A DNA stretch of 64,000 nucleotides from Lachnospiraceae bacterium (GCA_045130455.1 JBGUPV010000155.1:22890-86889); one strand, 5' to 3'. Numbered from the stretch's first letter, positions 4,772 to 27,682 are shown. Numbers and translations are program-made. Notes: generated by a model from the letters alone, not told the origin.

Positions 4772-4783
4772 CCTGACTCCCTC

Positions 4784-6724: not shown

Positions 6725-6889
6725 AAATTCACCCCGTTATTTCCACCACTTCAGAAAAGCGGAAACACCTTGACGACGCATGATCTCCCCCAAGATCTCC
6801 ATGCCCCGCCAAGGCTCCGTACTGTTCTCCCGGAACTTCATCCCGGGATCGGCCTGATCCATACTCCCCAAGGCCCCACACTAAGCTGC

Positions 6890-11587: not shown

Positions 11588-11889
11588 AAATAAACAAAGA
11601 CGCCCCTCGCCGTATAAGGACGAGGGGCTGTTCGTGGTACCACCTTATTTCGCAGCTTGCGCTGCCTCTTTACGCCGCTCCAACAAGCGACTCATCGGTA
11701 ACGGGATTACCCGGAGATTCCTATTCCCGCATCGCCGCGCCAGAAAGCACCGCTGCCGGTTTCAAAATCTCAGCTCCGAAGCTACTTCCGCATCTCCGTC
11801 TCCGAACCGGTCTTGCAGCCTTGAACCGGTCTCTCTGTCGGTCGGTGGAAACGTACTCCTCTTCTTCCATGCCTTTGTGTTATGAATAT
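11588..11889 (-). promoter_or_regulatory. T-box leader (tRNA-sensing riboswitch) of valS, probable Val (GUA) specifier
   Basis: The minus strand carries the AGAGAG GA-motif at the Stem I base (rc of 11831-11840). The conserved T-box AAUAAGGUGGUACCACG is the rc of about 11631-11650. A terminator follows: CCCCUCG-UCCUUAUACGG-CGAGGGG then CGUCUUUGUUUAUUU (11588-11628). The candidate specifier is GAA-GUA-G (GUA is the rc of 11783-11785). Confidence 0.85.
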
Positions 11890-11895
11890 GTGCAT

Positions 11896-11924
11896 ACTTT
11901 ACCGCAGCCCGAGGGCTTTGTCAA
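11896..11924 (-). promoter_or_regulatory. sigma-70-type promoter of the valS leader
   Basis: Minus strand: TTGACA (rc of 11919-11924), a 17-nt spacer, then TAAAGT (rc of 11896-11901). Confidence 0.6.
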
Positions 11925-11948: not shown

Positions 11949-13433
11949 TCAATAGTATGTGTACTCATACTCCGTCTGTTCCGGCTCCTCACCGTCGCTG
12001 AGCTTTACCTCTTTCACGATGTTCCCGTGATCATCGTAGTCCGTGCTTATCTCGGAGTAGAGCGCACTGAAGAAGTTTCTGGTATTCACTCTTCTGCCGT
12101 TCTCGTCGAAGGTCGTCTTCATCTTTTCCTCAATATCGTCATCGCTTAAGTATTCCTTCCAACTGTACATTTCCAGTCTCCATGTTCCGTCCAGCGCACG
12201 ATATTCCATATCCGACACTTCAAGCCCGTTCCCCCATTCCTCGTTCAAGCAGGTAAGCTGTCGAAAAAGTTCATTGTCCCCGTAACTTTCCGTCGACACC
12301 GAAGGCGTCAGAAAATATAATTCCTCTTTACTTACGGGCGCTTCACTCTCTTCTCCCGTATCGGGATTCCTTTCACAGGAGTACATCCGCTTGCTGAAGA
12401 TTCCTTTTGCCGAGTCCCAGTCGCAGACCGTTTTTTCGCAGTACTTCTCCCCCTCGGCATAGGAACGCATCACCAGGATCTTTCCCAGCGCATCAAACTC
12501 ATTTTCCTTGATCGTCCCGTCCGCGAACGTCAGGATGCTCTTCGAACACACTCGCCCGCCTTTATACTGATATTCAACGGTACACATCTCATAGGGTTCG
12601 CCGTCAATCTCTCCGCAGAACACTTTCATACGGTTCAGCCGGCCGGATTCATCATAATACTTCTCATAGGTCTTTTCCCTGGTCACCGTCACATCATCGT
12701 CATAAATTTGCCAGTATACCCCGTATCCGGTCACCTTCCGCTGCTCGGCATCATACTCAGCCGCAACCACCTCCCGCCGGGATCCCGGCGGCAAAGAATA
12801 ACCGATTGCCCCGACTTCTTTCCGGTAGATGAGATTCCCGTACGCATCATATTCCATCTCGTGGCACCAATAAACATCCCCGTCCGAGTCGGTACCTTTG
12901 TTCAGGATCTCATCCCCGTTTTCGTTGTATCGTATCTCCTGTATCCTTTTGTAATCTTCGTTTGCGTTGCCTTCCCGTACAAAGCGGATACGGTCGGAAT
13001 CCCCGTCGTATTCATAGGACATAACGTACGGAACAACCTTCGAAGGATCCTCTCCGGCCTTCGTGGTAACCGTCGTCAGCGAAGCGACCCTCCCTTTGCT
13101 GTCGTACTCGGTGCGGATCTCCGTTTTCGTTTCCTCCCCGAACAGATGCAAATACCAGGAACTGCTGAAGATTTCCCGGCCGTCCGCATCCAGATCGACC
13201 TCATCCGTCCGGATCTTCGTCCGCACCCCTTTCTCGTAAGCATACGTGTCACAAACATAGCTTCCGGGGTATTTCACCGCCGGATCATTGCCCGGATTTC
13301 CCGGCGTCGACCCGGTGTCCGCCACCGTCCCGTTGTTCGCGTCATTTTCCGACTTCTTTTTGTCTCCCTTGGTGCAGGCCGTCATACACAGACAGACGAT
13401 CAGCACCGGGATCAACCATGCTTTTCCTTTCAT
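11949..13433 (-). CDS. YD/RHS-repeat-like lipoprotein (family member 1)
   Basis: The start is moved to the ATG at 13431-13433 (MKGKAWLIPVLIVCLCMTAC, lipobox), which has GGGGGAG upstream. The track start at 13625 adds an Arg/Ser-rich extension that overlaps the upstream gene. Repeats: EYDAYGNLIYRKE, YDESGRLNRMKVF, DYDDHGNIVKEVK. C-terminus EYEYTYY. Confidence 0.8.
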   Translation of the reverse strand: MKGKAWLIPVLIVCLCMTACTKGDKKKSENDANNGTVADTGSTPGNPGNDPAVKYPGSYVCDTYAYEKGVRTKIRTDEVDLDADGREIFSSSWYLHLFGEETKTEIRTEYDSKGRVASLTTVTTKAGEDPSKVVPYVMSYEYDGDSDRIRFVREGNANEDYKRIQEIRYNENGDEILNKGTDSDGDVYWCHEMEYDAYGNLIYRKEVGAIGYSLPPGSRREVVAAEYDAEQRKVTGYGVYWQIYDDDVTVTREKTYEKYYDESGRLNRMKVFCGEIDGEPYEMCTVEYQYKGGRVCSKSILTFADGTIKENEFDALGKILVMRSYAEGEKYCEKTVCDWDSAKGIFSKRMYSCERNPDTGEESEAPVSKEELYFLTPSVSTESYGDNELFRQLTCLNEEWGNGLEVSDMEYRALDGTWRLEMYSWKEYLSDDDIEEKMKTTFDENGRRVNTRNFFSALYSEISTDYDDHGNIVKEVKLSDGEEPEQTEYEYTYY

Positions 13434-13455
13434 AATTCTCCCCCTGTTTCTTATT

Positions 13456-14760
13456 TCACTCCGTGAAATACTTCGGAAAATACGTATACTCGTATTCCTT
13501 CCACGGCTTTTCCGTTCCGTCTTCCTTGACGCGATATTCTCGCGTCCGATGATCATACTCATCGTACTCACGGATCTCATTTTCCGAATATCCCCGATAT
13601 GTCTGACGGATGATATGCCCCGCATTGTCGAACTCGGCCTCCACGACGGTTTCCATCATATCCTTCTCATTCGGATGCTCGGCACGCTCGTTCGCCCACA
13701 CGTATTTCAGTGTATTCTTCAGAATCGTAAAATGATAATCCTCGTCTGGCTCATTGACGGGATGATTCAACACGATGAAGTACTCTTCTTCATCCTCCAG
13801 CATTTCATCATCATACTGCTTGTAATGCCTCCGTAGGTTTACCTCACGATTCGCCACCGGGTAATCACTGACATCCCAAAAGTATACATTGTACGATACG
13901 ACAACGCCGTTGACGATCTTCTCTTCGGAGATCACTCTTCCCATGCCGTCATATACCGTCCGGTTTCTGACGTTGAACACTCCATTTATATCTCCCGCCG
14001 TGTCGTAGGAAAATTCAAGGATCGTTCCGTCCATACCGTAGGCTGTAGTTGACTGCGACCTCAAAACGCCGTTCGGATCAAACATCCGGGAGATGCCGCG
14101 GTTCGTCCCGCGGTCGAAGGATCGCTCTTCGATCATTGACACGCCACCGTCGTCATCGTAGAATCTCACGACAGTTATATCCTGATCGACATAGGAGTCA
14201 ACCAGGATCTCCGGAATGTCATTATCCTCACTCCATTTCCTGCGGAAAATGACATTGTACATGGAGTCATACTTATTTTCCTCAGCGCTGAACGTTCCGT
14301 CATCGCTCTCTCTCCGCGAATAAAGAACCCTTTGGGAATCGCCGTCGTACACGTAAGTGTACGCTTCGGTAGATTCAACATCGCGGTACCAACCGGAAAC
14401 AATCTCGTAATACATGCGATCCAACTCGTCGAAGAAGCATCTCTCTTCCGTCCCCATATACGGCTCATCGGAGTCATCAGGCGGATACGTCATGCCGGAG
14501 TCGTAAGACAATTGTTTTCTGCGGATCACACGCCCTTTCTGATCCAGATCACATTCTTCTTCTTTGATCAGTACGCGATAGTCCCCCCTGTACAAATACT
14601 CTTTCTTCGTATAACTCGCGACCTCGGTCTGCCGGCGTTCATCTGCAGCGTTCTCCTGCGGACCATCCTTTTTCGACGATCCGGAGCACGCCGAAAGAAG
14701 TGCCGCTGCAAGCAGCGCCACTGTAAGCAAAAGGATCATTTTCCGAATCCGTTGCGTCAT
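13456..14760 (-). CDS. YD/RHS-repeat-like lipoprotein (family member 2)
   Basis: 434 aa. ATG at 14758-14760 with GGAGAGGA upstream. Signal peptide RKMILLLTVALLAAALLSAC. YVYDGDSQRVLYS and MFDPNGVLRSQ are present. C-terminus EYEYTYFPKYFTE. Confidence 0.8.
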   Translation of the reverse strand: MTQRIRKMILLLTVALLAAALLSACSGSSKKDGPQENAADERRQTEVASYTKKEYLYRGDYRVLIKEEECDLDQKGRVIRRKQLSYDSGMTYPPDDSDEPYMGTEERCFFDELDRMYYEIVSGWYRDVESTEAYTYVYDGDSQRVLYSRRESDDGTFSAEENKYDSMYNVIFRRKWSEDNDIPEILVDSYVDQDITVVRFYDDDGGVSMIEERSFDRGTNRGISRMFDPNGVLRSQSTTAYGMDGTILEFSYDTAGDINGVFNVRNRTVYDGMGRVISEEKIVNGVVVSYNVYFWDVSDYPVANREVNLRRHYKQYDDEMLEDEEEYFIVLNHPVNEPDEDYHFTILKNTLKYVWANERAEHPNEKDMMETVVEAEFDNAGHIIRQTYRGYSENEIREYDEYDHRTREYRVKEDGTEKPWKEYEYTYFPKYFTE

Positions 14761-14781
14761 AGTAATCCTCTCCGAAACACA

Positions 14782-16149
14782 TCAATAGTAGGTGTATTCG
14801 TACTCGTAGGAATCCTCTGGAATCCATTTTCCGTCTTCGTCAAACTTAGAAACTTTGACTACATTTTGGTGTTCATCAAACTCTTCGATTTCTGTCTGCC
14901 AACCGTAGTGATACGTCATTCTCTTCATAATATCCCCGTTGGAATCAAAGACCGAGTCAACAGTTGTCTCCCTCTCCCGGATAAGCGCTCCGTCGGAAGC
15001 CCCATCTACCGTTTTTTCAACATACTCATATACCCGAAAACAACCAACATTACCAGAACGCGAATCCGATTCTTGTCCATCCAGATAAAAGCTTTCATAC
15101 TTCGGCACAAGGTTTCCGTCACTATCTTTACTCATCACGGTTCGGATATTCACCTTTCTGTTCGGTACCGAACTGTCCTCGACGCCCCATCGGTATTCAA
15201 ATGCAGTATTGACAACTCCATTGTCATGGAATTCCGTCTCTCTGATCATTCTTCCCTGATCATCGTACAAATACTCTCTGTAGCAATACATTTTCCCATC
15301 ATTGTCTGCACGTAAATACACCTCTTCAATCATCACCCCGGCTGTGTTGTACTTATACCGGGTTTCGGACGTGACTTTGCCTTCATCATCCCTACTCAGC
15401 TCAGCAACACAGTGTCCCTGTTCATCATACTCAAGCACTTCTTCATAGTAAGCGCCGTCAGAAGGATCGGTTACAACAACTCGTATCGGACGTCCGTTCT
15501 CATCATAGTACCACTCCTCTTCGCTTTGAATCTGTTCCGAGTAATCTTCACCTTTTCCATAATCGTAGCTGATCCTCTTTCCATCCTGAAAGTTCGATTC
15601 GTACAAAACCCTGTAATGATCACCATACCTCGAATCAAATTCTTTATGAAAAATCGTATGGCCGAATTGATCGTATTGACACTCACGAATAATCTGAAGC
15701 TCACCCTCCAGGCTTGTATACAGATTAATTTGACACAATTCTCTGTCAGAATCCCCGTCATAGACAGGCAACAAACTGGAATATTCCTCACCTTCCGGAC
15801 CAAAACTCTCTGCCCAATAGAATACTTGTCTGTCAAGATCATCGTACATCCACCGTTTTTCATAACCCGATCCATCGTCATCATACCGAACGTTCTCACG
15901 GATTTTTCTCCCTTTTGAATCCAGATCCACTTCGGTCACACTAATCAGGACTCGCTTTCCGTTCTCGTCAAACTCATAGCTTTTATAATCATAACTGCCG
16001 GGGAGCCGCTTATTCAGCTCCGCAGCGTTCTCCTGCAAATTCTCCTGTGAGCTCCCCTTTTTCGACGATCCGGAGCACGACGAAAGAAGTGCCGCTGCAA
16101 GCAGCGTCACCGCAAGTGAAAGGGTCATTTTCCGAAGGGGGTGCGTCAT
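14782..16149 (-). CDS. YD/RHS-repeat-like lipoprotein (family member 3)
   Basis: ATG at 16147-16149; the track starts one codon earlier on TTG. Signal peptide RKMTLSLAVTLLAAALLSSC. Repeats: YDENGRPIRVV, EYDEQGHCVAELS, LYDDQGRMIRETE, FDSNGDIMKRMT. C-terminus YEYEYTYY. Confidence 0.8.
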   Translation of the reverse strand: MTHPLRKMTLSLAVTLLAAALLSSCSGSSKKGSSQENLQENAAELNKRLPGSYDYKSYEFDENGKRVLISVTEVDLDSKGRKIRENVRYDDDGSGYEKRWMYDDLDRQVFYWAESFGPEGEEYSSLLPVYDGDSDRELCQINLYTSLEGELQIIRECQYDQFGHTIFHKEFDSRYGDHYRVLYESNFQDGKRISYDYGKGEDYSEQIQSEEEWYYDENGRPIRVVVTDPSDGAYYEEVLEYDEQGHCVAELSRDDEGKVTSETRYKYNTAGVMIEEVYLRADNDGKMYCYREYLYDDQGRMIRETEFHDNGVVNTAFEYRWGVEDSSVPNRKVNIRTVMSKDSDGNLVPKYESFYLDGQESDSRSGNVGCFRVYEYVEKTVDGASDGALIRERETTVDSVFDSNGDIMKRMTYHYGWQTEIEEFDEHQNVVKVSKFDEDGKWIPEDSYEYEYTYY

Positions 16150-16164
16150 CAAAACTGCCTCACT

Positions 16165-17562
16165 TTACTCGTACGTATATTCGTAGATCCACTCGCTCCC
16201 CGGGACAATCTCGTTGTTCTCCAACGAATATTCACGTACTACATTGCCCATCGTGTCGTATTCCCTGACATCACATCGGTCGTATCTGTTATAAGCTGTT
16301 TGCTTCACCGGCTTTCCGTCCTTGTCAAACTCCGTGTCAAGCCCCAGTCTCATTTCTTCCGACAGACTCGGTCCCCCGCTCCCGGTTCCCATATTCCAGT
16401 CGATCACCCGCTCCCGCATCCGATACATACTGTTGTAATCATCAATATCCCCGAGATAGTATGTTTCACTGGTAAGCACCTGAACACCATTGTAAAGATC
16501 GTATACCGATTCGCGGTTCACTTTTCGGTTCGGTACCGTCGGGTCATCGATATCCCACTCCACTTGTGTAAGAGAGTTCAGAGTCCCATCCAGGAAGTTC
16601 TCCGTTGACCGGCACAACCGTTCCTGCTCGTCATATTCATCCGAATGGGTCAGACACCAGACTGAATTGACCGCTGTATACCTGCGGTACTCTGCGATCT
16701 TTCCGTTGTTATGATACTCGAACTCCTCCTTCTCGTACGGGTTGTCAGGATCATATGACTGATCGTATGACGCCGTTCCGACACATCTCCCGTCCTCGTC
16801 GTATTCATACAGCTTGCGAACATGGTTGCCGGGCTTCAGATACTCAACTCCGTCATCGGTATAACTGTACACCGGGCAATGCTCGTCTTCCCAGAGCAGT
16901 CTTCCTTCTTCATCATAACAGAATGTCTCCACGACAACCTTCTCTCCGTACTCGTCCGGAGTATCGGCATACTTATATACGCGCCGTTTGGTTCCCTGAA
17001 TGTCAGAATCGACTTGAATTCTATAACCGTCGGTCAGCAGGTCGGTAGCCCGCTCAAAGATTAAGTTCCCGTATGCGTCGTACTGCCGCTCCGTGATCTC
17101 AACATCATCTGACGAGCCGTCCCCATGCTGTTCCTGATACACAATCCTGTCGGAATCCCCGTCATATGCCAGAAGTCCGTACGTTAAGAAGCGTATCTCC
17201 GTATTTTCCACCCATTGAGTTGCTTCCCAGTACACCACGCGCCCCAGCTCATCATACAGCCAGCGCCGCTGCCCTTTTCTTTGTAAATCCGCACCTCGTG
17301 CATATTCCCACCGGATCTTATGACCCTTCTCATCCATTTCGTACGCATCATAATCGGTATGCTCTCTGGTTCCGTCCTCCCGAATATAATACGTGTTAAA
17401 ACTGTACTTTCTCGGTCCCGTGTACTCTTCTTCCGCGGCTTTTCCGGATTTCGCATCCTCGTCCCTGTCCCGCGGTTTCTTCCCGCACGCCGACAACAGT
17501 GCCGCCGTAAGCAGCGCCACTGCAAGCAAAATGATCATTTTCCGTGATCCGTGCCTTCTCAT
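16165..17562 (-). CDS. YD/RHS-repeat-like lipoprotein (family member 4)
   Basis: 465 aa. ATG at 17560-17562 with GGGGAG upstream. Signal peptide RKMIILLAVALLTAALLSAC. Repeats: QYDAYGNLIFERA, CYDEEGRLLWEDE, EYDEDGRCVGTAS, EYDTMGNVVREYS. C-terminus IYEYTYE. Confidence 0.8.
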   Translation of the reverse strand: MRRHGSRKMIILLAVALLTAALLSACGKKPRDRDEDAKSGKAAEEEYTGPRKYSFNTYYIREDGTREHTDYDAYEMDEKGHKIRWEYARGADLQRKGQRRWLYDELGRVVYWEATQWVENTEIRFLTYGLLAYDGDSDRIVYQEQHGDGSSDDVEITERQYDAYGNLIFERATDLLTDGYRIQVDSDIQGTKRRVYKYADTPDEYGEKVVVETFCYDEEGRLLWEDEHCPVYSYTDDGVEYLKPGNHVRKLYEYDEDGRCVGTASYDQSYDPDNPYEKEEFEYHNNGKIAEYRRYTAVNSVWCLTHSDEYDEQERLCRSTENFLDGTLNSLTQVEWDIDDPTVPNRKVNRESVYDLYNGVQVLTSETYYLGDIDDYNSMYRMRERVIDWNMGTGSGGPSLSEEMRLGLDTEFDKDGKPVKQTAYNRYDRCDVREYDTMGNVVREYSLENNEIVPGSEWIYEYTYE

Positions 17563-17575
17563 CCCGATCTCCCCG

Positions 17576-18946
17576 TCAATAGTAGGTGTACCTATATTCC
17601 TCCCGCATGATCTCTCTGTACTCCGACGTCGACATCCGGATTTCCGTAAGATTACCGTGCTCGTCGTACTCCCGCTCTTCGATCCAGTTCGGAGTCTTAT
17701 ACTTCAGACTCGCCCTTGTTCCGTCGAGATGATATTTTACTCTGTAAAAATACGGCCAGGGATCATCCTCCAGTTCGGGGTGAACGATATCCGCGCTGAA
17801 CAACCCTCTCTCCGTGAATTGTTCGAGATTGTCGTCGATCAGCGCTGTTTTCTCTTCCGGATCATACTCGAACGGCGATCTGTCACCGTTCTGATAATCA
17901 CAAAGATATATGCAGCTCGCTTCGCAGTTATAGGTATCTCCGTCCTCGACTCTGCAATAATTCTTTATAACACCTGTCGGAACCCTTGTGTTCATGAGTT
18001 CGTACTCCGACATGGATTCCGCGTCCTCAACAAAAGGATAGTCACCGGCCCACCCAAGCCGCGGATCGAAGATACAGTATTCAAAGAGAACTGCCGCATG
18101 CGGCAGGGAATACAATCCCCCGTCGTAGACATCGATCCGCTCACAATAGTCAAAGTTATCAAAATATTTATACTTGTAACGCTCCGTCAACACCGGCGTC
18201 CACCCGGTTTCCGCGTCACACTGATAATTCCGCTGCTGCTCCATCAGCCCGTCGGCATTATATATTCTTTCACTCTCGAGCGCCCTGGTTGGATACTGCC
18301 CCGAGGACTCCGTGTTATTGTCAACGATCCGATACAGTTCAAGCGATCTCTCGTTCAACTCCGCCGTCGTCTCCAGCCGTCCGTTCCGGTTCAGCTCTTT
18401 TCGGAAAATGAGGTTTCCGTAAGTGTCGTATTTCCGCTCTGTATGCTCCAGAACATAACCGTCCGCATCCACGGTCCTTCGAAGCGTCTCCCGCTTTGTG
18501 TCACCGTCGTAGGCATATACCGTTGCGCGGGGATAGCCCTCGGCGATCCCTTCATCCGTCGTGCGCAGCGTCTCCTTATATACGACCCGGCCCAGATCAT
18601 CGCGCACGTACCACACCTCCTCCGTGCTTCCTATCGGGAGGTCATCGGATACGGTTGCCTCATATCGGCAGGATTTATAGATCGTCTGACCGTTTTTATC
18701 GACCTTGACAACTTCCGTCCGCCGGTCATTAACATTCTCGTCCCTCACCGTACTGACCTTGCACTCGTAGCTCCCGGGATTCCATTCGGTCGGCTCCGAA
18801 AGCACCCTGCGCACCTGCGCGGGGTCACCGCCATTCCCGGAATTCTTCGACGAAGCCGATTTTCGGCCGCAAGAAGAAAGCTGTGCCGCTGCAAGCAGCG
18901 ACACAACAAGTAAAATGACCCATTTTCCCCTGATCTGCCTTCTCAT
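17576..18946 (-). CDS. YD/RHS-repeat-like lipoprotein (family member 5)
   Basis: 456 aa. The ATG at 18944-18946 overlaps the upstream stop (ATGA). Signal peptide GKWVILLVVSLLAAAQLSSC. Repeats: AYDGDTKRETLRR, KYDTYGNLIFRKE, EYDEHGNLTEIRM. C-terminus EEYRYTYY. Confidence 0.8.
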   Translation of the reverse strand: MRRQIRGKWVILLVVSLLAAAQLSSCGRKSASSKNSGNGGDPAQVRRVLSEPTEWNPGSYECKVSTVRDENVNDRRTEVVKVDKNGQTIYKSCRYEATVSDDLPIGSTEEVWYVRDDLGRVVYKETLRTTDEGIAEGYPRATVYAYDGDTKRETLRRTVDADGYVLEHTERKYDTYGNLIFRKELNRNGRLETTAELNERSLELYRIVDNNTESSGQYPTRALESERIYNADGLMEQQRNYQCDAETGWTPVLTERYKYKYFDNFDYCERIDVYDGGLYSLPHAAVLFEYCIFDPRLGWAGDYPFVEDAESMSEYELMNTRVPTGVIKNYCRVEDGDTYNCEASCIYLCDYQNGDRSPFEYDPEEKTALIDDNLEQFTERGLFSADIVHPELEDDPWPYFYRVKYHLDGTRASLKYKTPNWIEEREYDEHGNLTEIRMSTSEYREIMREEYRYTYY

Positions 18947-19869
18947 ACGATTCCATCTTCTTTTGCGTCTTCCGTAGTGCCTTCCCCAGGCTTCGCCGCG
19001 GCTTTCGCGCCCACACTCTTCAGATCCGGTTCCACGATCTCGCCCTTGCCGACGGATTGCCCGTCCTCACGCAGGAACCGGCGCCGCTCCTCCGCATCCT
19101 CGGGCATCGCGCTCTGCAACCCGCGGATGATGCCGGGATAGCTGACGGAGCGCATGGACGGGAACGCGTCGAGCATTCGCTTCTGTTGCCTTGTAAAAAA
19201 CTGGAGCATCCCTCGGAAGAACGTCTCGACCACGACTGTGTCGTACAACGCCGCCATGCGGTCCTTGACCGCCGAAAGTTTCTCGGCGATCTTGCCGATC
19301 TTCTCCTCGAAGTCCGCCGCATGCTTCACGCTCACCACGAGATCGATGAAAAATACAGCGATCAAAGTCCACGCTGTCAGATGCAGCGCCAGCGGCGGCA
19401 TCAGACCGATCAGCCACAGCGTGCGCGGGTTGATGTATCGCAGCAGCACCACCGACATCAGACCGAACGCGAAAAATCCTTCGATACAGATGCGTCCGTT
19501 GAGGTGAAGCAGCATGTCCGTGTAATCCCACCAGCGGGCATTGAACATCTTCTCCATCAGATAGCCGGTCAGGTACTCGACGCCACAACAGATGACCGCG
19601 CTCACAAAGAACAGCAGGATCGGTTTGTCCTTGAGTCCGCTGAGTAAAAACAGATCGATCAGCGCGCCGGCGCCGTAGATCGGAATGTATGGCCCGATCA
19701 TGAAGCCGCGGTTGACGATCCTGTGCTTATCCCACAGCGAGTAGAAGAAGCTCTCCCACACCCATCCGATGAAGCTGTAGATGATAAACATCAAAAAACT
19801 GGTTTCAACAAGTTCCACGGGATCGCACACTCCTTCCGAGCGCCAGGGCAATCCCGCGCAAAGTCTCAT
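18943..19869 (-). CDS. polytopic membrane protein, 'putative ABC-transporter type IV' (CmpB-like) family, with a charged C-terminal tail
   Basis: IYSFIGWVWESFFY...NRGFMIGPYIPIYGAGAL...GVEYLTGYLMEKMFNARWWDYT is typical of that family, from memory. The start is uncertain. The ATG at 19869 overlaps the HD gene by 65 nt. Alternatives are the GTG at 19818 (GGAAGGAG upstream) and the ATG at 19791. Confidence 0.7.
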   Translation of the reverse strand: MRLCAGLPWRSEGVCDPVELVETSFLMFIIYSFIGWVWESFFYSLWDKHRIVNRGFMIGPYIPIYGAGALIDLFLLSGLKDKPILLFFVSAVICCGVEYLTGYLMEKMFNARWWDYTDMLLHLNGRICIEGFFAFGLMSVVLLRYINPRTLWLIGLMPPLALHLTAWTLIAVFFIDLVVSVKHAADFEEKIGKIAEKLSAVKDRMAALYDTVVVETFFRGMLQFFTRQQKRMLDAFPSMRSVSYPGIIRGLQSAMPEDAEERRRFLREDGQSVGKGEIVEPDLKSVGAKAAAKPGEGTTEDAKEDGIV

Positions 19870-20290
19870 ACGTTGCGCACGCTTTATCGACGACGCAAAG
19901 GATCTTTCCCTCCTTCGTCTTCGGTATGCGCAGGTTCAGCGGGAACATATGACAATGGATCATATCCTCCTCGATCCCGGTCAGTTTAAAATCGCGGCGG
20001 GCATTTTTCAACGCCTTCTCCGCATGGAAAAATCCGTGAAGACGATGGCTCGGATCATCCTCATGCCAGTCGTACAGAAAATAATCGTGCAGAAGCGCTC
20101 CGCGCACCAGACTCCTGCGGTTGACCCGCACCGGAAGCCTGTCGGCCAGCGCCAGACATCCCCGCGCCACAAGCATCGAATGGTCATAGACCGTGATGTC
20201 GCCGTGCTGCAGGAACGTCTTCTCCATCTGCATGCCCGGCGAGCGCAAAATGTCCCCGCCGTGCTTCCACAATTCCCTCTTATACTTCAC
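19805..20290 (-). CDS. HD-domain phosphohydrolase (small, about 160 aa)
   Basis: GTG start at 20288-20290 with AGGAGGA 8 nt upstream. H...HD metal-binding pattern: HSMLVA...GALLHDYFLYDWH...HGFFHAEKAL...HMFP. Confidence 0.75.
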   Translation of the reverse strand: MKYKRELWKHGGDILRSPGMQMEKTFLQHGDITVYDHSMLVARGCLALADRLPVRVNRRSLVRGALLHDYFLYDWHEDDPSHRLHGFFHAEKALKNARRDFKLTGIEEDMIHCHMFPLNLRIPKTKEGKILCVVDKACATYETLRGIALALGRSVRSRGTC

Positions 20291-20334
20291 GCAAACGTCC
20301 TCCTGTGTCCGAATTCCCCCACTGTATCCCGGGC

Positions 20335-21171
20335 TTATCTGTCCCGGTATGCCTTCTTCAGCTTATTGACCGTCTCATCGAAGAACCACCAGAATTCCTC
20401 GGTGGCTTCCTCTTCCTTGCCCCGCAGCTCCATCAGATGCAGGTAGTTGATGTAATCCGGCGAATACTCCCGGTTTTCCTCCACAAAATAGAACTGATTC
20501 TCGATGCGGCGGATGACCTCCGTCTCCCGCGAGTACACCGTGAGCTCGTTGTTGAATTCCTCCTCCATACCGCCGAGCTTGAGCGCGTACAGATACTGGC
20601 ACAGACTCTCCTTGTAGCCGCTCTTCTGGTACGCGGTCTGAAAATACTTCGCCGCGTTGCGGAACTGTCCGTTCTGCGCCATCAGGACCGCGATGTTGTG
20701 GTACGCCGCGCCCTGTTCCTCCTCCGAGAGCTGCGCGAAATCCCGGTCGTCCAGGATCGTCTGGTACTCCAGAAGCGCCTCTCTCGTCTTACCGTACCGA
20801 AGGATCGCCGACGCGTGGTGGCGTTTGCGCTCGATCGGAAGCAGCTCGAAATACTCGTCGATCTTGCCGATCAGATGATTGATCTCGTCCTGGCTGTAAT
20901 AGTCGGTGCTGCAGAAGATCGAAACCACGATATCCTTGATCCCCGATTTGCGCTCCATCAGCGTCGAGAGGAAATCGGCCCGTTCCGGCATATTCAGTTC
21001 CACACGGATCCACGGCACCAGCTGGCTCTCCGCGAGGTCCTCCTCCATCGTCTCCACGTTGTGGAAGAGGTAGTAACACAGCTCCTCCATCGTGTAGACA
21101 CACACCCCTGTGGACTGAAAATAAAACGGTATCTTTGCTTTGTCACCGATACAGTATATAAGTCGTCCCAT
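20335..21171 (-). CDS. hypothetical protein with C-terminal TPR-like helical repeats
   Basis: 278 aa. ATG with a GGGAGAA RBS. No recognisable catalytic motif. AAYHNIAVLMAQNGQFRNAAKYFQTAYQKSGYKESLCQYLYALKLGG looks TPR-like. Confidence 0.65.
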   Translation of the reverse strand: MGRLIYCIGDKAKIPFYFQSTGVCVYTMEELCYYLFHNVETMEEDLAESQLVPWIRVELNMPERADFLSTLMERKSGIKDIVVSIFCSTDYYSQDEINHLIGKIDEYFELLPIERKRHHASAILRYGKTREALLEYQTILDDRDFAQLSEEEQGAAYHNIAVLMAQNGQFRNAAKYFQTAYQKSGYKESLCQYLYALKLGGMEEEFNNELTVYSRETEVIRRIENQFYFVEENREYSPDYINYLHLMELRGKEEEATEEFWWFFDETVNKLKKAYRDR

Positions 21172-21189
21172 AGTTCTCCCGTTCCGCCG

Positions 21190-22446
21190 TTACAGCTGAA
21201 TGACCTTCTCCCAGACGCGATAATTGCTCGGGAAGAATTGACCGAACCCGAGGTCCGTCACCGTGCACACCGCCGTGTCACGGTCGAGGAATGTCACCTT
21301 CACGGCCACACGCGTCGTCTTGTTCTCGCGCCGGTGCAGGTTCTTCAGGTTCATGATCGAATATTTGGTCTCCTTGCGAACCGCATTGAAGATCGTAAAA
21401 TAAATCTCGTCCGTATCGTCGAGGATACCGACGGTCTTCGCCTTGGCCTCACGCCATTTTTCGCCGGCACGGATCAGCGGATAGTCCGCCACGCGGTTGT
21501 CCTTGAACATGCGGATGGAGATCGTCGAGCGGACCATGTCCTCCGTGAGGAAGAGATAATCCTCGAAGCGCTCGCTGCCCTCGTACTGTCCGCAGTACGC
21601 CGCGCCCTTCGCGTAGAGGTTCATGCCCTTGAAGACGTGGCGTCCCGAAGTCATCGACTTTAAGATGTCGTCCGGCCATGTGCCCTCGAAGCCCTTGCCC
21701 GTCACGTAGATGGTCGAGATGATCTGCTTCTGGATCACCTTGTCGCGCACGAGACGGAAGCTGTACTGCATGCGGCTCTCCTGCATATTTTCCAGCATTG
21801 TCGCGTCCATCAGGTCGCTCAGGTCCGCGGTAAATGTGGTCACTGCCGCGGGCGAACCCTTGCGGTTCGTCGACATCTGGTAGTAGAAGAGGCCGTTCTC
21901 GTTGTAATCAAAGAGGCTGACGTCGTTGACCCAGTATTCTTTGCGCTGGCACACCGCGTAGTACATGAAGCTCATGACGTACGGGCGGAACACAACCTTG
22001 TCCCTGCGGATGCCGGTTTCCTCGATCGCCTGCTGCACCGCCTCCACCACCCCGGGGTGAAGCGTGCGCATCGTCACGACGACCTTCTCGACCGTATCGC
22101 TGACGTACCTCTGCCGGACGGCCGATAGCGTCTTGCGGACAAACCGCGCCAGAAGCTCCGCCGCCGTATATTCAATCTCAAAGATGACCTCGCTGTCGCC
22201 GCGCAGCACCTTGTTGACGAGATCGTCCACAAAATGACCCGCGCCGCGGTTGTGGAATCGCACGGCCTCCTCGCCGAAGAGCCAGTCCTTCGAATCATTA
22301 CGCACGCAAAGAACGGTGGGGATCACGGTATTCCCACTGCTCGGCGTGATACTGATACTGTCCGGTTCCTCGGTTGCCCGGCCCACTGCGATCTGCGTCA
22401 TCTCGACGCCGAGATCGTATCCGATGAAGATAGCCTTCGGATCCAT
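21190..22446 (-). CDS. degenerate Hsp70/actin-fold (ASKHA-like) protein, function unknown
   Basis: 418 aa with an AGGAGGAG RBS. N-terminal AIFIGYDLGVEMTQIAV aligns with the DnaK IGIDLGTTNS phosphate-1 loop. VSLFDYNENGLFYYQ aligns with DLGGGTFD, and IYVTGKGFEGTWP with LVGGSTRIP. The C-terminal VAVKVTFLDRDTAVCTVTDLG resembles the Hsp70 SBD strand IEVTFDIDANGIL. The glycine-rich phosphate loops are not conserved. Confidence 0.6.
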   Translation of the reverse strand: MDPKAIFIGYDLGVEMTQIAVGRATEEPDSISITPSSGNTVIPTVLCVRNDSKDWLFGEEAVRFHNRGAGHFVDDLVNKVLRGDSEVIFEIEYTAAELLARFVRKTLSAVRQRYVSDTVEKVVVTMRTLHPGVVEAVQQAIEETGIRRDKVVFRPYVMSFMYYAVCQRKEYWVNDVSLFDYNENGLFYYQMSTNRKGSPAAVTTFTADLSDLMDATMLENMQESRMQYSFRLVRDKVIQKQIISTIYVTGKGFEGTWPDDILKSMTSGRHVFKGMNLYAKGAAYCGQYEGSERFEDYLFLTEDMVRSTISIRMFKDNRVADYPLIRAGEKWREAKAKTVGILDDTDEIYFTIFNAVRKETKYSIMNLKNLHRRENKTTRVAVKVTFLDRDTAVCTVTDLGFGQFFPSNYRVWEKVIQL

Positions 22447-22463
22447 CCCGTGCTCCTCCTGGG

Positions 22464-23267
22464 TTAGTTATTGGATCTGCTCCTTGCAAGGATGCGAAGA
22501 ATGCGGATCAAGAGGTTGATCAGGTCCACATAGATCATGCTCGCACTGTCGATGGCGTCGTCCACCGTCTTCGGTCTCTGCTGAGCAACAGCCCAGTCGT
22601 AACCGATGTAGCCGCAGAAGATGCCGATGAAGATAAAGTCAAAGATTCCCGAAGAGAATCCCAGTGCCCACATGACGACCTCGGCAACAAGACCGATCAG
22701 CAGGCAGCCGAACAGCATTTTCCCGATGGAGAGCATGAAGTTCGGAAACGCGTACGAAATACCGATCATCACAAGCGCGACAAATCCCATGATGCAGAAC
22801 GCGTACTGAAGCGTCTCAATGGAGTACATATACAGGAAAGGCGTCAGTATGATTCCCATGGGAATGACGATCAGCGCGTAACCGATCAGGTCGATCACCG
22901 GATTGTCCGACTTCTTGATCATGACCGTTCCCGCGATCACCGATACAAAGTATCCGATGAGCATCGCGATATAGGTCCCCGAATCCCGGTAAACCAGGTT
23001 CGAGATCTTTTCGCCGAAACCGAAGAGCATGATCGCGTTAACCGCGAAACCGGCAAGGATGACCAGTCCGATGATCATGTTGTACTTGCTGACCGAGATC
23101 GTGTCGGCCGTGTTGGACGAGCCGTACCCCGCCAGCTGGTTGAAGTCCACATGCTGCATCGTCGATGCCGCCGACATCGAGGAGACAAACATCTGCTCCT
23201 GCTGCTCGTTCAGCCCGCGCTGTCCGTTGTTGTTCGACGGATCATTGTAGTTTGAATAGTTGTCCAT
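22464..23267 (-). CDS. Bax inhibitor-1/YccA family membrane protein with an N/Q-rich N-terminal extension
   Basis: 267 aa with about 7 hydrophobic helices. The C-terminal motif DSASMIYVDLINLLIRILRIL is typical of BI-1/YccA proteins. Coordinates are taken from the ORF track; my manual count of the start codon differed by 1 nt. Confidence 0.8.
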   Translation of the reverse strand: MDNYSNYNDPSNNNGQRGLNEQQEQMFVSSMSAASTMQHVDFNQLAGYGSSNTADTISVSKYNMIIGLVILAGFAVNAIMLFGFGEKISNLVYRDSGTYIAMLIGYFVSVIAGTVMIKKSDNPVIDLIGYALIVIPMGIILTPFLYMYSIETLQYAFCIMGFVALVMIGISYAFPNFMLSIGKMLFGCLLIGLVAEVVMWALGFSSGIFDFIFIGIFCGYIGYDWAVAQQRPKTVDDAIDSASMIYVDLINLLIRILRILARSRSNN

Positions 23268-23287
23268 GATTATTTCCCCCTGTCACT

Positions 23288-26200
23288 TTACGTATTTTCC
23301 GCAATCGTGTCCTCCTCCGTGTGGAACAGCTGGGAGATGGCAAATTCGTTGCGGATGTATCTGTTCAACAGATCAAGAGCCTTGTCGGCGTCGCGCTCCT
23401 GCTGCGCCTTGATGATCTCATTGATCTGGGCGAACCGGCTTCCGGGATTGCCGATGGTCTTGTCGCCGCCCTGCAGCGAAGCCTTCTCGGTGATCACCGT
23501 ATCGTCCCCTTCGCGGTCAGGCTCGTCGCTGATGACATAGTCCACGGTCTCTCCGGCAAAGAGCACAAGCTCCTTCACGAAGATGCCGTAGCAGATGTCG
23601 CGCATCGGGAACTCCCGGTGGATGCGCTTGCCCGTTCCGCGGTAGGTGTAGTCGAGCGTCACATGATGTTTCGGGTTCGTGCGGTACTCGACGAAGAATT
23701 TGTCCTCGAGACTCTCGGGAAGCGTAAAATACTTCGCGAAATTCAGGAATGCCGGCAATATCTTGCCTCTGGCTTCCATGCGGACCAGCCAGTATTCCGC
23801 GAAATCCTGCTCCTCCTTCGTGAGCGTCTCCTGCTCCGCGTACTGCCGGAGCAGCGCGAGCACACAGACATCGTTGTCCTCGCGGTACACCGTGCGGCGG
23901 ATGATGGCCACCGTGGTCTCGCCCATCGCGATGTCGGCCGTGAGGTATTTGTAAGCCATATATGTGATGTACGCGCGGATCAGCGTCCGATCGCTGCGCG
24001 GTTTGTCATACGCGTGGATCAGCGCGTCGCCGTACGGCAGGTACGACTCCGTGAAGAGGATCTGCGCGAGGAGCCGCTCCTCAAGGCTGTCCGCCGAAAG
24101 TCCTGCGGCATCCGCCTCCTCCCACACGTGGTAGAGCACTTGCGTGCGCGCCTGAAGATGGCGCACAAGATACTCGAGAATGCGCTCGCTGCGGCGCCCG
24201 CGGCAGAAGAGAAAGTACATCAGGTCGTCCAGGATCGGTGTCGACGTCTCGATCTGCTCTCTCGGAAGATCGACGCAGAACCGCTCCAAAAGACGAAGGT
24301 CGACCTCCTCATAGCCGTAGCGCGTCAGAAGCGGCATCACACGGTCGCTTCCCCGAAGGATCATCAGGCCGATGAGACGGCCTCTCTGCTTCGCGGGGAT
24401 CGCCGCAAAATTCAGCCGGCCGACCAGCTCCTCGAGCTGTTCGTCGCGGAAATTGTCGTAGAAATGAAGCACCAGCGTCCGCAACAGTTCCTCACGGAAC
24501 TCATCGCGGAGCTCAAGGGATCGGCAGGCCCTCTTCCGGTACTCGATCGCGTCGGGATCAAACCTGCGCTCCTGCTGTGCTCTGGAAGCCAGTTGAAGCA
24601 GGATCATGGTGTTGTCCGGATACGAGGAATACGCCTCCGCGTAAATGTTCTCGCAGTACATCAGACGGCGCTTCTTGTACGGAATACCGCTCAGGAAACG
24701 GTTGCGGTTCGCATCCATGAAAGCGATCACCGCGTTGTCCGTGTAGATGTCCGCCTGGGCATGCCCGCTCGCTAGCGCGATCACCGTCTCCTCCGCGAGT
24801 TCGGGATGCGCGATGCAGACATAGTGGATGCCCGGCGCGTCGCACTCGATCTCATAGCGGAACGCGATGGTCTGAAGCTTCTCGAGCACCCGGTCGCGGT
24901 AATCCTCGGACGCCAGGCAGTCCTGGTAGAGGATCGCGAGGAAGTCGTCGTTGCGCTTCTCGCGCAGACGGTCCATCGTGTACTCCCGAATCTTCGGAAG
25001 GAAGCCCTCGTAGACTTCCGGATTGCTCTCCTTGTGCCGCACGATGTTGGCGTACAGGAACGAGAGTTTCCGGTCGTTGAGCTTGCTGTTATACGTAAAA
25101 TAAGCGAATACGTTGTCGTCGAGCGTCTCGTCCACATCGGATTTGCCGGTGTAGAGATAGTACTCGTAGAGTTCCGCCACGCGGATCTCCGCCTCGACGC
25201 CGCGCTCAAACCAGACGGCGTATTTCGGGTCGCGGCAGTGCCCGCGGATCAGCATCGCGCAGATGGACGTGAGCGCCTCGCGAAGCTGGAACCGGTCGTA
25301 GATGCCCTGCAGCACCGTATAATACAGCGGCTTGAATTCCTTCACGGTCTCCGCGAGCACGGAGAATTGCACCGCCACTTCCTTCTGCAGGAAACGGTTG
25401 CGGACGGCGTAGGCCACCGTCTGCAGTTCAAAATCGCCGATCTCGTGCAACAGCGTCGGCTCCTCGTTGAGGGTGCGCGCTGCCTCAAGGAACAGAAGCG
25501 GCGAAGGATTGTCGTTGTCGTACAGTCCGCGGAGCTCGTCGAGACGAAGCTTGCGGTTCCGGGAATACCGGTCGTCAAGCTGCATCAGCAGAAGCGCCGG
25601 GATGATCCGCTTGGGAGCGTCGTTGCAGATCCCGTAGAGCTGCTCCAGCGCGGTCACGCGGTTGGCGCTCGAGCGCTCCGCGCGCAGGTAGATGTAAGCC
25701 GCCTTGGCGTCCGCCGAAGACGACATCACTTCATTCTCATCGATCTCGCGGAGCTTCGCGTTCGCGGGACTCTCGCGGCCGCTCAGACGGTCGAGATGAA
25801 TCCGGTACAGTCTCGCCTCCAGCGAGAGGTTGCCTGCCGCCTCCTGAAGTCTCGCCAGAAGGCCTTCCGCCTCGGACACATAGCGTCCGACGGGGATGCG
25901 GTTCATCCGGTAAGCCAGCGCATTTTCCGCCAGCTCCACGATGATCGCGGACTGCGTCTTGCGGCGCACCTGCTCCGCCGTCTGCTCCTGCGTGCGGTGG
26001 CAGTACACCGGCACCTCGATGGTCTGGTTCTGCGCCTCCACCGTCAGCGTCGCGTAATTGATGCCGCGCGACATCTTCTCGGGGATTACGACATAGCGAA
26101 TATCATACACACCGCCGACGAACTGCTCCGTCGTAACGACGCCGTGCTCGACAAGCAAAAAGTCAGCCGTGGAGGACACCTGCAGGTTCACGTATCCGGG

Positions 26201-26860
26201 GTTGTCCATGCGGATCGTCAACCGGTCGGAAAATGCGTTGTCCCTCACGTCGGGATACTCGATCTTCGTCTTGGCCACCGAGATGGCCACAGGCATCTTG
26301 CGCCCCGTCGCCACCAGGAATTCCTCCATGGCGCGCTCCTCGGAGACGCTCTGCGTCAGAAAGTCATACAGGAAAAGGCTCTGCGGCTCATGGAACTGCA
26401 AAAACGGCCGGAACCCCGGATCCGTGTAAAGTTTGAGGGCTTCCTTGCGCTCCTCGCGCGCGAACAGGGCAAACTGCTCCGGTGTCTCGATCTTCACGCT
26501 CCCGAGCGGCAGCGTCGGCGCCGTCACTTCGATGTGGTACGGAAGCTCGACCTCTCCGCAGTCCGTGATGAACGTGAGCATACCGTCAATCTCGGTCAGC
26601 TCCTCGATCGTCTCGGCGTGAACCGTGTATTCTACCGTGTTGGAGACGCCCACAAACTGATTCGTCACCGCCTCCACGACGCGGTTGTCCGAGCACACGA
26701 GCCCCTTCATGGACTTCTCCGCGTCGTTGCTGATGATCACGCGGCCGCTCAGCTTCCGCCCGACCTCCACCGACGCGACGATCCTGTCCTTGCTGAGGCG
26801 GATTCTGGGAAGTTCGTATTCAATTACGCCCCGGGCGATCCCGGCTATCTTGTCTCTCAC
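23288..26860 (-). CDS. 1190-aa hypothetical protein (two N-terminal beta-rich modules, long helical-repeat body)
   Basis: GTG start at 26858-26860 with AGGAGGGG upstream. No Walker A, no signal peptide and no TM segment were seen. I recall large proteins annotated as DUF5717 beside DUF5716 in Clostridia, but I cannot verify membership here. Confidence 0.75.
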   Translation of the reverse strand: MRDKIAGIARGVIEYELPRIRLSKDRIVASVEVGRKLSGRVIISNDAEKSMKGLVCSDNRVVEAVTNQFVGVSNTVEYTVHAETIEELTEIDGMLTFITDCGEVELPYHIEVTAPTLPLGSVKIETPEQFALFAREERKEALKLYTDPGFRPFLQFHEPQSLFLYDFLTQSVSEERAMEEFLVATGRKMPVAISVAKTKIEYPDVRDNAFSDRLTIRMDNPGYVNLQVSSTADFLLVEHGVVTTEQFVGGVYDIRYVVIPEKMSRGINYATLTVEAQNQTIEVPVYCHRTQEQTAEQVRRKTQSAIIVELAENALAYRMNRIPVGRYVSEAEGLLARLQEAAGNLSLEARLYRIHLDRLSGRESPANAKLREIDENEVMSSSADAKAAYIYLRAERSSANRVTALEQLYGICNDAPKRIIPALLLMQLDDRYSRNRKLRLDELRGLYDNDNPSPLLFLEAARTLNEEPTLLHEIGDFELQTVAYAVRNRFLQKEVAVQFSVLAETVKEFKPLYYTVLQGIYDRFQLREALTSICAMLIRGHCRDPKYAVWFERGVEAEIRVAELYEYYLYTGKSDVDETLDDNVFAYFTYNSKLNDRKLSFLYANIVRHKESNPEVYEGFLPKIREYTMDRLREKRNDDFLAILYQDCLASEDYRDRVLEKLQTIAFRYEIECDAPGIHYVCIAHPELAEETVIALASGHAQADIYTDNAVIAFMDANRNRFLSGIPYKKRRLMYCENIYAEAYSSYPDNTMILLQLASRAQQERRFDPDAIEYRKRACRSLELRDEFREELLRTLVLHFYDNFRDEQLEELVGRLNFAAIPAKQRGRLIGLMILRGSDRVMPLLTRYGYEEVDLRLLERFCVDLPREQIETSTPILDDLMYFLFCRGRRSERILEYLVRHLQARTQVLYHVWEEADAAGLSADSLEERLLAQILFTESYLPYGDALIHAYDKPRSDRTLIRAYITYMAYKYLTADIAMGETTVAIIRRTVYREDNDVCVLALLRQYAEQETLTKEEQDFAEYWLVRMEARGKILPAFLNFAKYFTLPESLEDKFFVEYRTNPKHHVTLDYTYRGTGKRIHREFPMRDICYGIFVKELVLFAGETVDYVISDEPDREGDDTVITEKASLQGGDKTIGNPGSRFAQINEIIKAQQERDADKALDLLNRYIRNEFAISQLFHTEEDTIAENT

Positions 26861-26892
26861 GATCCCCTCCTGCCTCTGCGGTACGCAGAGTC

Positions 26893-27486
26893 CTACGGTT
26901 GTATGCTCTCCATCGTATCATCCTCGCGCCTGCGGAAGATCACGCTTCCGTCCAGCGCGACAAAATACTCTCCTGCCAGTCCGCCGCCCTTGTTCAGGAC
27001 GATCACGCCGAAGCATTCCACGCCGTTGATGTTGGTCGTGTACTCGTCGGTCTCGAAGTCATAATCGGACATGCTCTTCGAGAGCTTCAGCTTGCTCGCG
27101 GACTTACTCTTTAAAAACTCCTCCGCCTTCGCAGCGGTAAATTTCTTCGGCGCTTCGGTCGGCGTCGGTGTCGGCGTGTCTGTAGGCCCCTTGGTCGGTG
27201 CCTTGGTCGGCTCCTTCACGGCCGGCGTTTCGGTTATCTTCTGCTTGCCGCCGTCGGTCGGCGTCGCCTTGCCTGTCTGCTTTCCGCCGCTTCCGGTCGG
27301 CTTGGTGACCGACTGCGTCGGCGTCTTGTCGGAGTCTTTCTTGCGCTCATCCAGGCGCTCCAGCCCCCAGCTGACAAGCCCGAAAACAACGGCAACCGCA
27401 AGCACGTACAATATTGCTTTCAACAGGATCACGGAGCCTCTGTTTTTCTTCGCCCGCTTCCTGCTCTTCTTCTTTTTCTGTGCCAC
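26893..27486 (-). CDS. single-pass membrane protein with Lys-rich N-terminus, Thr/Pro linker and small extracytoplasmic domain
   Basis: GTG start at 27484-27486 with GGAGGAGGGG upstream. MAQKKKKSRKRAKKNRG, then TM helix VILLKAILYVLAVAVVFGLVSW, a T/P/K linker and a C-terminal globular part of about 80 aa (…GVECFGVIVLNKGGGLAGEYFVALDGSVIF). Confidence 0.7.
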   Translation of the reverse strand: MAQKKKKSRKRAKKNRGSVILLKAILYVLAVAVVFGLVSWGLERLDERKKDSDKTPTQSVTKPTGSGGKQTGKATPTDGGKQKITETPAVKEPTKAPTKGPTDTPTPTPTEAPKKFTAAKAEEFLKSKSASKLKLSKSMSDYDFETDEYTTNINGVECFGVIVLNKGGGLAGEYFVALDGSVIFRRREDDTMESIQP

Positions 27487-27535
27487 TGATCAACCCCTCC
27501 TCCGGGTTCCCCCCGTGATCACCCTATACGGAATC

Positions 27536-27564
27536 ATTGTATCACAGTGTCCGCCGTTTGTCAC
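27536..27564 (-). promoter_or_regulatory. sigma-70-type promoter (extended -10) at the head of the 27486-to-11949 gene cluster
   Basis: Minus strand: GTGACA (rc of 27559-27564), a 17-nt spacer ending in TGA, then TACAAT (rc of 27536-27541). It sits immediately downstream of the rplT terminator. Confidence 0.6.
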
Positions 27565-27598
27565 GGATTTCTTACCGCGGCGCCGGCCGCCGGAACGA

Positions 27599-27633
27599 CA
27601 AAAAACCGCAGGGCATCCGGGGATGCTCTGCGG
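27599..27633 (-). terminator. intrinsic terminator of infC-rpmI-rplT
   Basis: Minus strand: CCGCAGAGCATCC-CCGG-ATGCCCTGCGG followed by TTTTTTG. Confidence 0.85.
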
Positions 27634-27682
27634 CTTGTCAGCTGCTCATTGCAGCACTCAATTCTTATGTCACTCTGCGCGA

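Follow-up and report, generated by a model that had tools for sequence, protein, structure and literature searches.

Ssz1 is a lid-less Hsp70 paralog, shortened at its C-terminus, that works without a normal ATPase cycle. It is permanently partnered with the helical protein Zuo1, a segment of which fills the beta domain of Ssz1 as a pseudo-substrate. Here we describe a gene cluster that includes a lid-less Hsp70 derivative of the DUF5716 family, found in a 64,000-nucleotide stretch of DNA (hereafter the window) from a member of the Lachnospiraceae, which are dominant gut and rumen bacteria (GCA_045130455.1, JBGUPV010000155.1:22890-86889). The cluster consists of 12 consecutive minus-strand open reading frames (ORFs; g01 to g12) between positions 27486 and 11949, flanked by the rplT terminator and by the valS promoter and T-box leader. 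Coordinates are those of the window, and features lie on its minus strand unless stated otherwise.

We read the cluster as a layered composite and not as one system, with a probability of about 0.72. The layers would be a core of DUF5717 (g02), DUF5716 (g04) and a TPR-like protein (g05) that acts as clamp and scaffold, a set of clade-specific additions, and a variable cargo of YD-repeat lipoproteins.

The core trio of DUF5717, DUF5716 and g05

Related loci were collected in two scans. A genome scan anchored on DUF5716 matched about 277 stretches (one genome per species), of which 80 loci were inspected. An independent metagenome scan anchored on DUF5717 matched 306 stretches, of which 80 were inspected, bringing the set to 160 loci. 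All genome-scan loci come from Lachnospiraceae-type organisms, and the cultured carriers include Anaerocolumna sedimenticola CBA3638, Anaerocolumna sp. AGMB13025 and MB42-C2, and Herbinix hemicellulosilytica T3/55T. The genes occur in the order DUF5717, DUF5716, g05 in 60 of the 62 genome loci with enough flanking sequence, and in 61 of 71 nothing separates DUF5717 from DUF5716. Downstream, valS follows on the same strand in 52 of 56 genome loci, 13 nt to 7.8 kb past g05; in the window this distance is 8.7 kb, the largest seen. Every metagenome contig with enough downstream DNA likewise carries DUF5716 and then g05. The original prediction had proposed that the genes for the giant, Hsp70-like and TPR-like proteins co-occur, and in practically all related loci they do stand together as a fixed unit with one orientation. 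The trio is ancient and vertically inherited in the Lachnospiraceae, and nearly always lies directly upstream of valS.

Compared with the related locus L003, the core proteins are 86% (g05), 85% (g04) and 79% (g02) identical, against 87% for rplT and 94% for valS among the housekeeping genes. The additional genes of the cluster are less similar (BI-1 44%, g01 48% and CmpB 56%). By these identities, the core trio is conserved like housekeeping genes, which points to purifying selection.

The DUF5716 gene (g04, 21190..22446) encodes a 418-aa protein that matches PF18980 (DUF5716_C) with 301.5 bits (cutoff 34.7). Its predicted structure (pLDDT 90.8) contains an Hsp70 nucleotide-binding domain and a beta substrate-binding domain, and the top 50 Foldseek matches in the PDB were all Hsp70s (DnaK, Hsc70, BiP, Ssz1 and Hsp110; E 3.5e-19 to 6e-14). 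In addition, the DUF5716 profile matched the DnaK sequence (E = 0.0016) over the nucleotide-binding domain and the last beta strands of the substrate-binding domain. DUF5716 clearly derives from Hsp70. The model terminates in beta strands at residue 418 and so has no C-terminal alpha-helical lid, and lobe IIB is cut down to about one helix.

One could nevertheless propose that DUF5716 still cycles on nucleotide as a functional, ATP-driven Hsp70 chaperone, with DUF5717 and g05 standing in for the J-protein and the exchange factor as co-chaperones of an unconventional kind. The retained Hsp70 fold and beta substrate-binding domain fit this proposal, as do the conserved D11, D175, G250 and G252 (the last two forming a loop) and the hydrophobic interdomain linker DFLFL. 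TPR proteins are, moreover, classic partners of Hsp70s. However, both Gly/Thr phosphate loops are lost across the DUF5716 family, whose consensus has DL(C/G)xDxTQ in place of the Hsp70 phosphate-1 motif DLGTTNS and D(V/I)(G/A/S)LF in place of the phosphate-2 motif DLGGGT. At the K70 position the residue varies, and the set of catalytic and phosphate-binding motifs of Hsp70s (DLGTTNS, K70, E171, DLGGGTFD) is not present as such. For these motif comparisons, one alignment used an Escherichia coli DnaK sequence and another used DnaK from the PDB. The reduced lobe IIB and missing lid also speak against an ATP-driven chaperone, as does the consensus C-terminus RVWEKxIxI, which is not an EEVD-type tail. 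No cluster protein matched PF00012 (HSP70), DnaJ or GrpE at E <= 0.1. Because DUF5716 differs from Hsp70 in its motifs, lid, PF00012 membership and partners, we class it as an Hsp70 variant and not as a member of the family. From the motifs and the model, a DnaK-type ATP cycle is unlikely, and we regard the ATP-driven chaperone as an improbable account of the core. The earlier description of g04 as a degenerate Hsp70/actin-fold protein therefore stands, its fold being supported by model, Foldseek and profile and its degeneracy by the loss of motifs.

The DUF5717 gene (g02, 23288..26860) encodes a 1190-aa cytoplasmic protein with a full-length match to DUF5717_N and DUF5717 (PF18984 762 bits, PF18983 246 bits; both Pfam cutoffs 25). 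The AlphaFold2 model (pLDDT 85.9) contains four beta-sandwiches (residues 20-124, 193-289, 668-732 and 1054-1130) and two alpha-solenoids (residues 295-666 and 737-1052). In Foldseek searches the sandwiches resembled ASH/SPD-2-type domains (ciliary central-apparatus proteins, CEP192, PDB 2qsv) and the solenoids resembled TPR/HAT repeats (Ski3, Prp6, Ctr9, IFT-A), all of them generic scaffolding folds. The DUF5717 profile had no match among PDB sequences at E <= 10, and no catalytic domain was found in g02. Judging from the model, DUF5717 is a scaffold of beta-sandwiches and alpha-solenoids.

The third core gene, g05 (20335..21171), encodes a 278-aa TPR-like protein. It has one TPR_2 match of 18.4 bits, under the cutoff of 27, and its profile matched only TPR proteins in the PDB, weakly (E >= 0.013). 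The best-conserved part of the protein is the N-terminal 100 residues, which are not TPR. Conserved cysteines occur in the non-TPR N-terminal half (C32 is invariant, and C7 and C87 are present in at least 90% of sequences) and may form a metal or redox site.

A natural fusion joins DUF5716 and g05 into a single 709-aa protein (P0109; hhalign probability 100%, E = 3e-74). The fusion sequence is identical on eight contigs from independent samples (biogas and others; L162-L167, e.g. L162:4620-6749), where the gene order is DUF5717, the fusion, the C4 gene described below, further genes and valS. Gene fusion is classic evidence for physical interaction, and this one argues that DUF5716 and g05 interact physically. 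Together with the near-invariant synteny and the housekeeping-like conservation, it argues that the core trio is one functional unit.

Membrane genes of individual clades and the variable slot before valS

In the lineage of the window, the trio is preceded by a gene for a single-pass membrane protein and is driven by a conserved sigma-A promoter. The membrane protein (g01, 26893..27486) is Lys-rich, with its N-terminus inside, a transmembrane (TM) segment at residues 19-37, a Pro/Thr-rich linker and a small C-terminal domain; its Pfam matches are low-complexity only. Homologs of g01 (29-48% identity) lie upstream of DUF5717 in 18 loci.

A second kind of membrane protein, an unannotated family that we call C4, is encoded 3' of g05 in 40 genome loci of distant lineages. 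It is also the next gene in most distant clades of the metagenome set, human-gut contigs included. C4 proteins (L033-L080 and L090-L160, e.g. L046:12186-13415) are about 400 aa long, with coiled-coil regions, a membrane hairpin of two helices in the middle and the motif KEMVEVRHRLNxRRxK, which is invariant. Searches of Pfam gave sub-threshold membrane-protein noise only, and the C4 profile found nothing significant in the PDB. C4 is not encoded anywhere in the 64-kb window, so it has not merely been relocated there.

The genus-level clade of the window has gained a BI-1 gene inside the DUF5717-DUF5716 junction and an HD and CmpB pair past g05. The BI-1/YccA family membrane protein (g03, 22464..23267) matches PF01027 (Bax1-I) with 68 bits (cutoff 34.1) and has about seven TM segments by hydrophobicity. 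BI-1 had been considered for co-occurrence with the core; it does not belong to the conserved set and lies between DUF5717 and DUF5716 in 10 of 71 genome loci, all in the closest clade, and elsewhere the two genes abut. Where present, it is only 41-53% identical, and its flanking genes are 75-86% identical. The HD-domain protein (g06, 19805..20290) matches PF01966 with 31.5 bits (cutoff 22), and its HDIG score of 22 bits is under the cutoff of 27.6. The CmpB-like membrane protein (g07, 18943..19815) matches PF06541 with 162 bits (cutoff 25.9). The HD and CmpB genes each occur in 6 of 56 genome loci, and in the metagenome set BI-1, HD and CmpB are confined to the three closest loci (BI-1 in L081, L082 and L084). 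As a general rule, replacement of C4 by BI-1 was rejected, since L010-L031 have neither. Searches of NCBIfam gave no meaningful match for any of nine cluster proteins tested, and PADLOC defence models gave none for g02-g08 or g12, with low-complexity matches only for g01.

The slot that precedes the valS T-box leader is a hotspot of variation. In the window it carries five divergent, tandemly duplicated YD-repeat genes, and its contents turn over even between close relatives. The five genes lie at 17576..18946 (g08, lipobox LSSC, C-terminal YRYTYY), 16165..17562 (g09, lipobox LSAC, C-terminal YEYTYE), 14782..16152 (g10), 13456..14760 (g11, lipobox LSAC) and 11949..13433 (g12, lipobox MTAC, C-terminal YEYTYY). 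All five proteins are predicted lipoproteins of 434-494 aa with the lipobox (LSSC, LSAC or MTAC) at about residue 21-26 and a shared C-terminal motif of the YEYTYY type. They are paralogs, with 23-26% identity to g08 and up to about 32% between other pairs, and the closest match of g12 is the single YD copy of L006 (37%). GC content at third codon positions (GC3) is 0.47-0.65 in the YD genes, with the cluster minimum of 0.47 in g10, against 0.77-0.82 in the core genes and CmpB and 0.76 in valS.

Among the nearest relatives (DUF5716 about 85% identical), the slot between CmpB and the valS T-box is empty in L004 and L007, holds an unrelated membrane-protein pair in L003 and L008, and carries one YD gene in L006 and two in L009. 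These last two are the only YD lipoproteins among 56 genome loci, and YD lipoproteins are absent from all distant metagenome loci. The original prediction had the YD lipoproteins travelling with the core and had named a lack of synteny as the observation that would count against it; the two are almost never syntenic. In the very close relative L161, CmpB is 87% identical to that of the window and the orthologs of g08, g09 and g11 are 53%, 92% and 91% identical; the array is otherwise collinear but has no g10, and this absence and the low GC3 of g10 mark it as the most recent addition. The rarity of the YD genes, their distinct GC3, the differences in L161 and the unrelated contents of the same slot elsewhere indicate that they are cargo and not part of a conserved system.

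An exhaustive profile search found 31 matches at E <= 1e-10 among 1.84 billion representatives, so the YD lipoprotein family is small. The five-protein profile does reach bona fide RHS_repeat proteins (up to 507 bits of RHS_repeat), and the array could be taken for a polymorphic Rhs-type toxin/immunity locus, given these long relatives and its tandem, rapidly diverging paralogs. For RHS_repeat itself (PF05593), the best YD protein of the window scores 14.4 bits, under the cutoff of 22, and full-length relatives of the family (P0162-P0164) pass it with 22.9-25.7 bits. Against a toxin locus, the proteins are short and carry a lipobox, searches of Pfam and PADLOC detected neither an Rhs core nor a toxin or immunity domain, and the C-termini share the YEYTYY end instead of variable toxin tips. 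We consider an Rhs-type toxin/immunity locus extremely improbable.

A second lipoprotein array lies just downstream of valS (464-8584) and encodes four lipobox proteins (564, 646, 734 and 695 aa) whose linkers are rich in Pro and Thr. Three of these share 28-36% identity as paralogs and have the C-terminal end YEGY(S/T/P)F(D/E), GC3 is 0.59-0.67, and no Pfam match was found for the proteins of this array. Homologs also follow valS in L006 and L007. The presence of an unrelated lipoprotein array on the other side of valS indicates that such arrays are general in this genome and are not partners of the core.

Layout and transcription of the locus

The upstream boundary of the cluster is the intrinsic terminator of rplT (27598..27634), whose hairpin (-24.8 kcal/mol, z = -6.7) runs into U6. 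The sigma-A-type promoter follows at 27536..27564, with the sequence GTGACA-17-TG-n-TACAAT and an extended -10 element (promoter scan, 10 of 12 matches plus TG). It is kept in L003-L009 as CGTGACAAAC...TGTG(A/G)TACAAT...CTCTGTATAG, immediately past each rplT terminator, in surrounding DNA that has diverged. The downstream boundary (11613..11924) comprises the valS promoter TTGACA-17-TAAAGT (11924-11896) and a T-box leader (11613-11878; RF00230, 104 bits) with a terminator hairpin of -20.7 kcal/mol at 11628-11602. Pfam matches back the identities of rplT (Ribosomal_L20), infC and valS (ValRS).

Within these boundaries the genes are separated by 12-44 nt or overlap slightly, once the starts of g07 and g12 are revised. 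The g12 start is MKGKAWL at 13433 and not 13625, and that of g07 is most likely the GTG at 19815 and not 19869, as VELVETSF matches MELIETSF of relatives. The ATGA overlap of g07 and g08 is at 18943-18946. In all, the prediction of 12 tightly packed minus-strand genes behind one near-consensus promoter was borne out in layout, overlap and promoter, and its product identities were all verified by Pfam, lipobox and C-terminal motifs or TM segments, with g05 TPR-like on one sub-threshold match.

We did find one strong hairpin inside the cluster, where none followed by a U-tract had been reported before the valS promoter. It lies at 18907-18880 within the first 70 nt of g08, in the part that encodes the signal peptide and exactly at the CmpB/YD boundary, and consists of a 12-bp stem (-20.2 kcal/mol, z = -3.5) followed by the U-rich tail UUUCUUCUUG. 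By its position and folding it is a candidate partial terminator or attenuator. The palindromic core GCTGCTTGCAGCGGC, which encodes LLAAA, is common to three YD signal-peptide regions (14702-14716, 16091-16105 and 18880-18907); each copy folds into a hairpin followed by a U-rich run, and only that in g08 is strong. No terminator was found 3' of g12 (folding z = +0.6), so transcripts of the cluster would enter the valS leader. Read-through into the T-box is predicted to stop at the 11628-11602 terminator unless tRNA-Val is uncharged.

All 12 genes are probably co-transcribed from the single conserved promoter by read-through, possibly attenuated at the g08 hairpin, because the cargo genes landed in the tail of an operon. 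The conserved promoter and short gaps favour a single transcription unit, and the g08 hairpin speaks against one. Several promoter-like sites (9-10 of 12 matches) also occur inside the cluster; the scan found 21 against 11.7 expected from shuffled sequence, a roughly twofold difference, and we took them as no more than chance and not as evidence. Long ORFs on the plus strand opposite g02-g08 were taken as antisense artefacts of high GC3.

This layout lends support to the idea that all 12 genes form one envelope system, whose cytoplasmic part would serve the membrane proteins and YD lipoproteins, for example in folding, export or display. The genes are co-directional and tightly spaced behind one conserved promoter, there is no canonical terminator inside the cluster or past g12, and both membrane and surface proteins are encoded. 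But the YD, HD, CmpB and BI-1 genes are infrequent in the genome loci and all are absent from the distant metagenome loci, and the core remains strictly conserved where no lipoprotein gene accompanies it. The YD genes also have their distinct GC3, the array differs between near-identical relatives, unrelated cargo fills the same slot elsewhere, and the strong hairpin sits at the CmpB/YD boundary. Synteny largely refutes a single system, which we regard as very unlikely. The original prediction of one envelope-associated system fails for the union of BI-1, HD, CmpB and YD genes, and holds in so far as membrane partners recur (g01-type proteins in 18 loci, C4 in 40). The layered composite, with a separate core, accounts for the cluster better.

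Three other regions of the window are outside the cluster. At 32034-35216, in the most GC-rich, AT-skewed part of the window (GC 0.64, AT skew -0.38), lies the gene for a 1060-aa protein that combines two domains of ADP-ribose processing, NADAR at the N-terminus and Macro at the C-terminus. The region 40001-44000 has a low GC content (0.45-0.49, vs about 0.57 elsewhere), carries a plus-strand subtilase gene (40161-42218) and a gene for a 415-aa protein with no Pfam match, and may be a foreign island. Finally, a 1389-aa ORF at 51962-56131 has no Pfam match at 1e-5; close to the N-terminus it encodes hydrophobic segments of membrane type, and the sequence around it is strongly skewed in both GC and AT.

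A possible clamp and scaffold, and comparison with known systems

Within the layered composite, the core could work as follows. DUF5716 would be a non-cycling, Hsp70-derived clamp that grips a partner by an extended segment bound in its beta domain. One candidate for that segment is the C-terminal tail of DUF5717 (...NEFAISQLF), which is conserved, has an invariant F1179 and is modelled with low confidence. DUF5717 and the TPR-like g05 might form a platform, and C4, the g01 anchor or both might tether the complex to the cytoplasmic face of the membrane. More specifically, DUF5717, DUF5716 and g05, with C4 where present, may be an undescribed, Lachnospiraceae-wide, membrane-tethered clamp and scaffold machine built on an Hsp70 stripped of lid and ATPase cycle. 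Among prokaryotes such a machine would correspond to the "structural" Hsp70s exemplified by Ssz1, and BI-1/YccA would have been recruited to it in the clade of the window. Taken jointly, these statements are tentative, and we give them rather less than even odds. The housekeeping role of such a machine would possibly be in membrane-protein quality control or in envelope or division organisation.

Several points weigh against this account. The clamp and scaffold mechanism is drawn from fold, motif loss and gene context, and we propose it with low certainty. Not every locus has a membrane tether, since L016-L031 lack both C4 and a recognisable g01 homolog. DUF5716 keeps the two aspartates of the actin fold and the glycines of the adenosine loop, and residual nucleotide binding is therefore possible on the strength of these residues. 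Tight spacing and one conserved promoter mean that the additional genes are probably co-expressed with the core, and a lineage-specific functional link to it is possible; BI-1 as a membrane partner in place of the missing C4 is one such link.

DUF5716 and DUF5717 are already Pfam families, and NCBI annotates the proteins under those names; we found no paper on either in the library searched. With a conservation close to that of rplT and no literature, the module represents a widespread, uncharacterised Hsp70-derived unit. The link to YD lipoproteins is an accident of insertion into the variable slot upstream of valS, and interest shifts to the three or four core genes.

Like Rhs and other YD-repeat proteins (PF05593), g08-g12 have YDxxGR-type repeats and profile-level homology to the family; unlike Rhs proteins, they are short lipoproteins with no Rhs core, toxin tip or immunity gene. 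Like other BI-1/YccA/YetJ proteins (PF01027), g03 passes the family threshold and has about seven TM segments, and its position in the DUF5717-DUF5716 junction is unique to one clade. The small TPR-type g05 recalls Hop, CHIP and Tah1 in being genetically coupled to an Hsp70-fold protein, to which it is fused in one lineage. In contrast to those proteins, it has one or two weak TPRs below the Pfam threshold, and DUF5716 has no EEVD.

Like DnaK and other Hsp70s, DUF5716 has the nucleotide-binding core, the hydrophobic linker and an eight-stranded beta substrate-binding domain. Unlike DnaK, it is 418 aa long instead of about 640 and has lost the phosphate loops and K70, most of lobe IIB and the lid, and it has no J or GrpE partners. 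If our account of the core is true, DUF5716 extends the known bacterial Hsp70 derivatives beyond DnaK, HscA and HscC. Its nearest functional analogy may be the Ssz1-Zuo1 complex (RAC) and not DnaK-DnaJ-GrpE, and the Ssz1-Zuo1 structures PDB 6sr6 and 5mb9 are among the Foldseek matches of g04. The analogy has its limits, as RAC is eukaryotic and ribosome-bound with a J-domain partner, whereas here there is no J-domain and the gene context suggests the membrane. In place of Zuo1, the candidate partner of DUF5716 is a 1190-aa protein of beta-sandwiches and solenoids that has no sequence homolog in the PDB.

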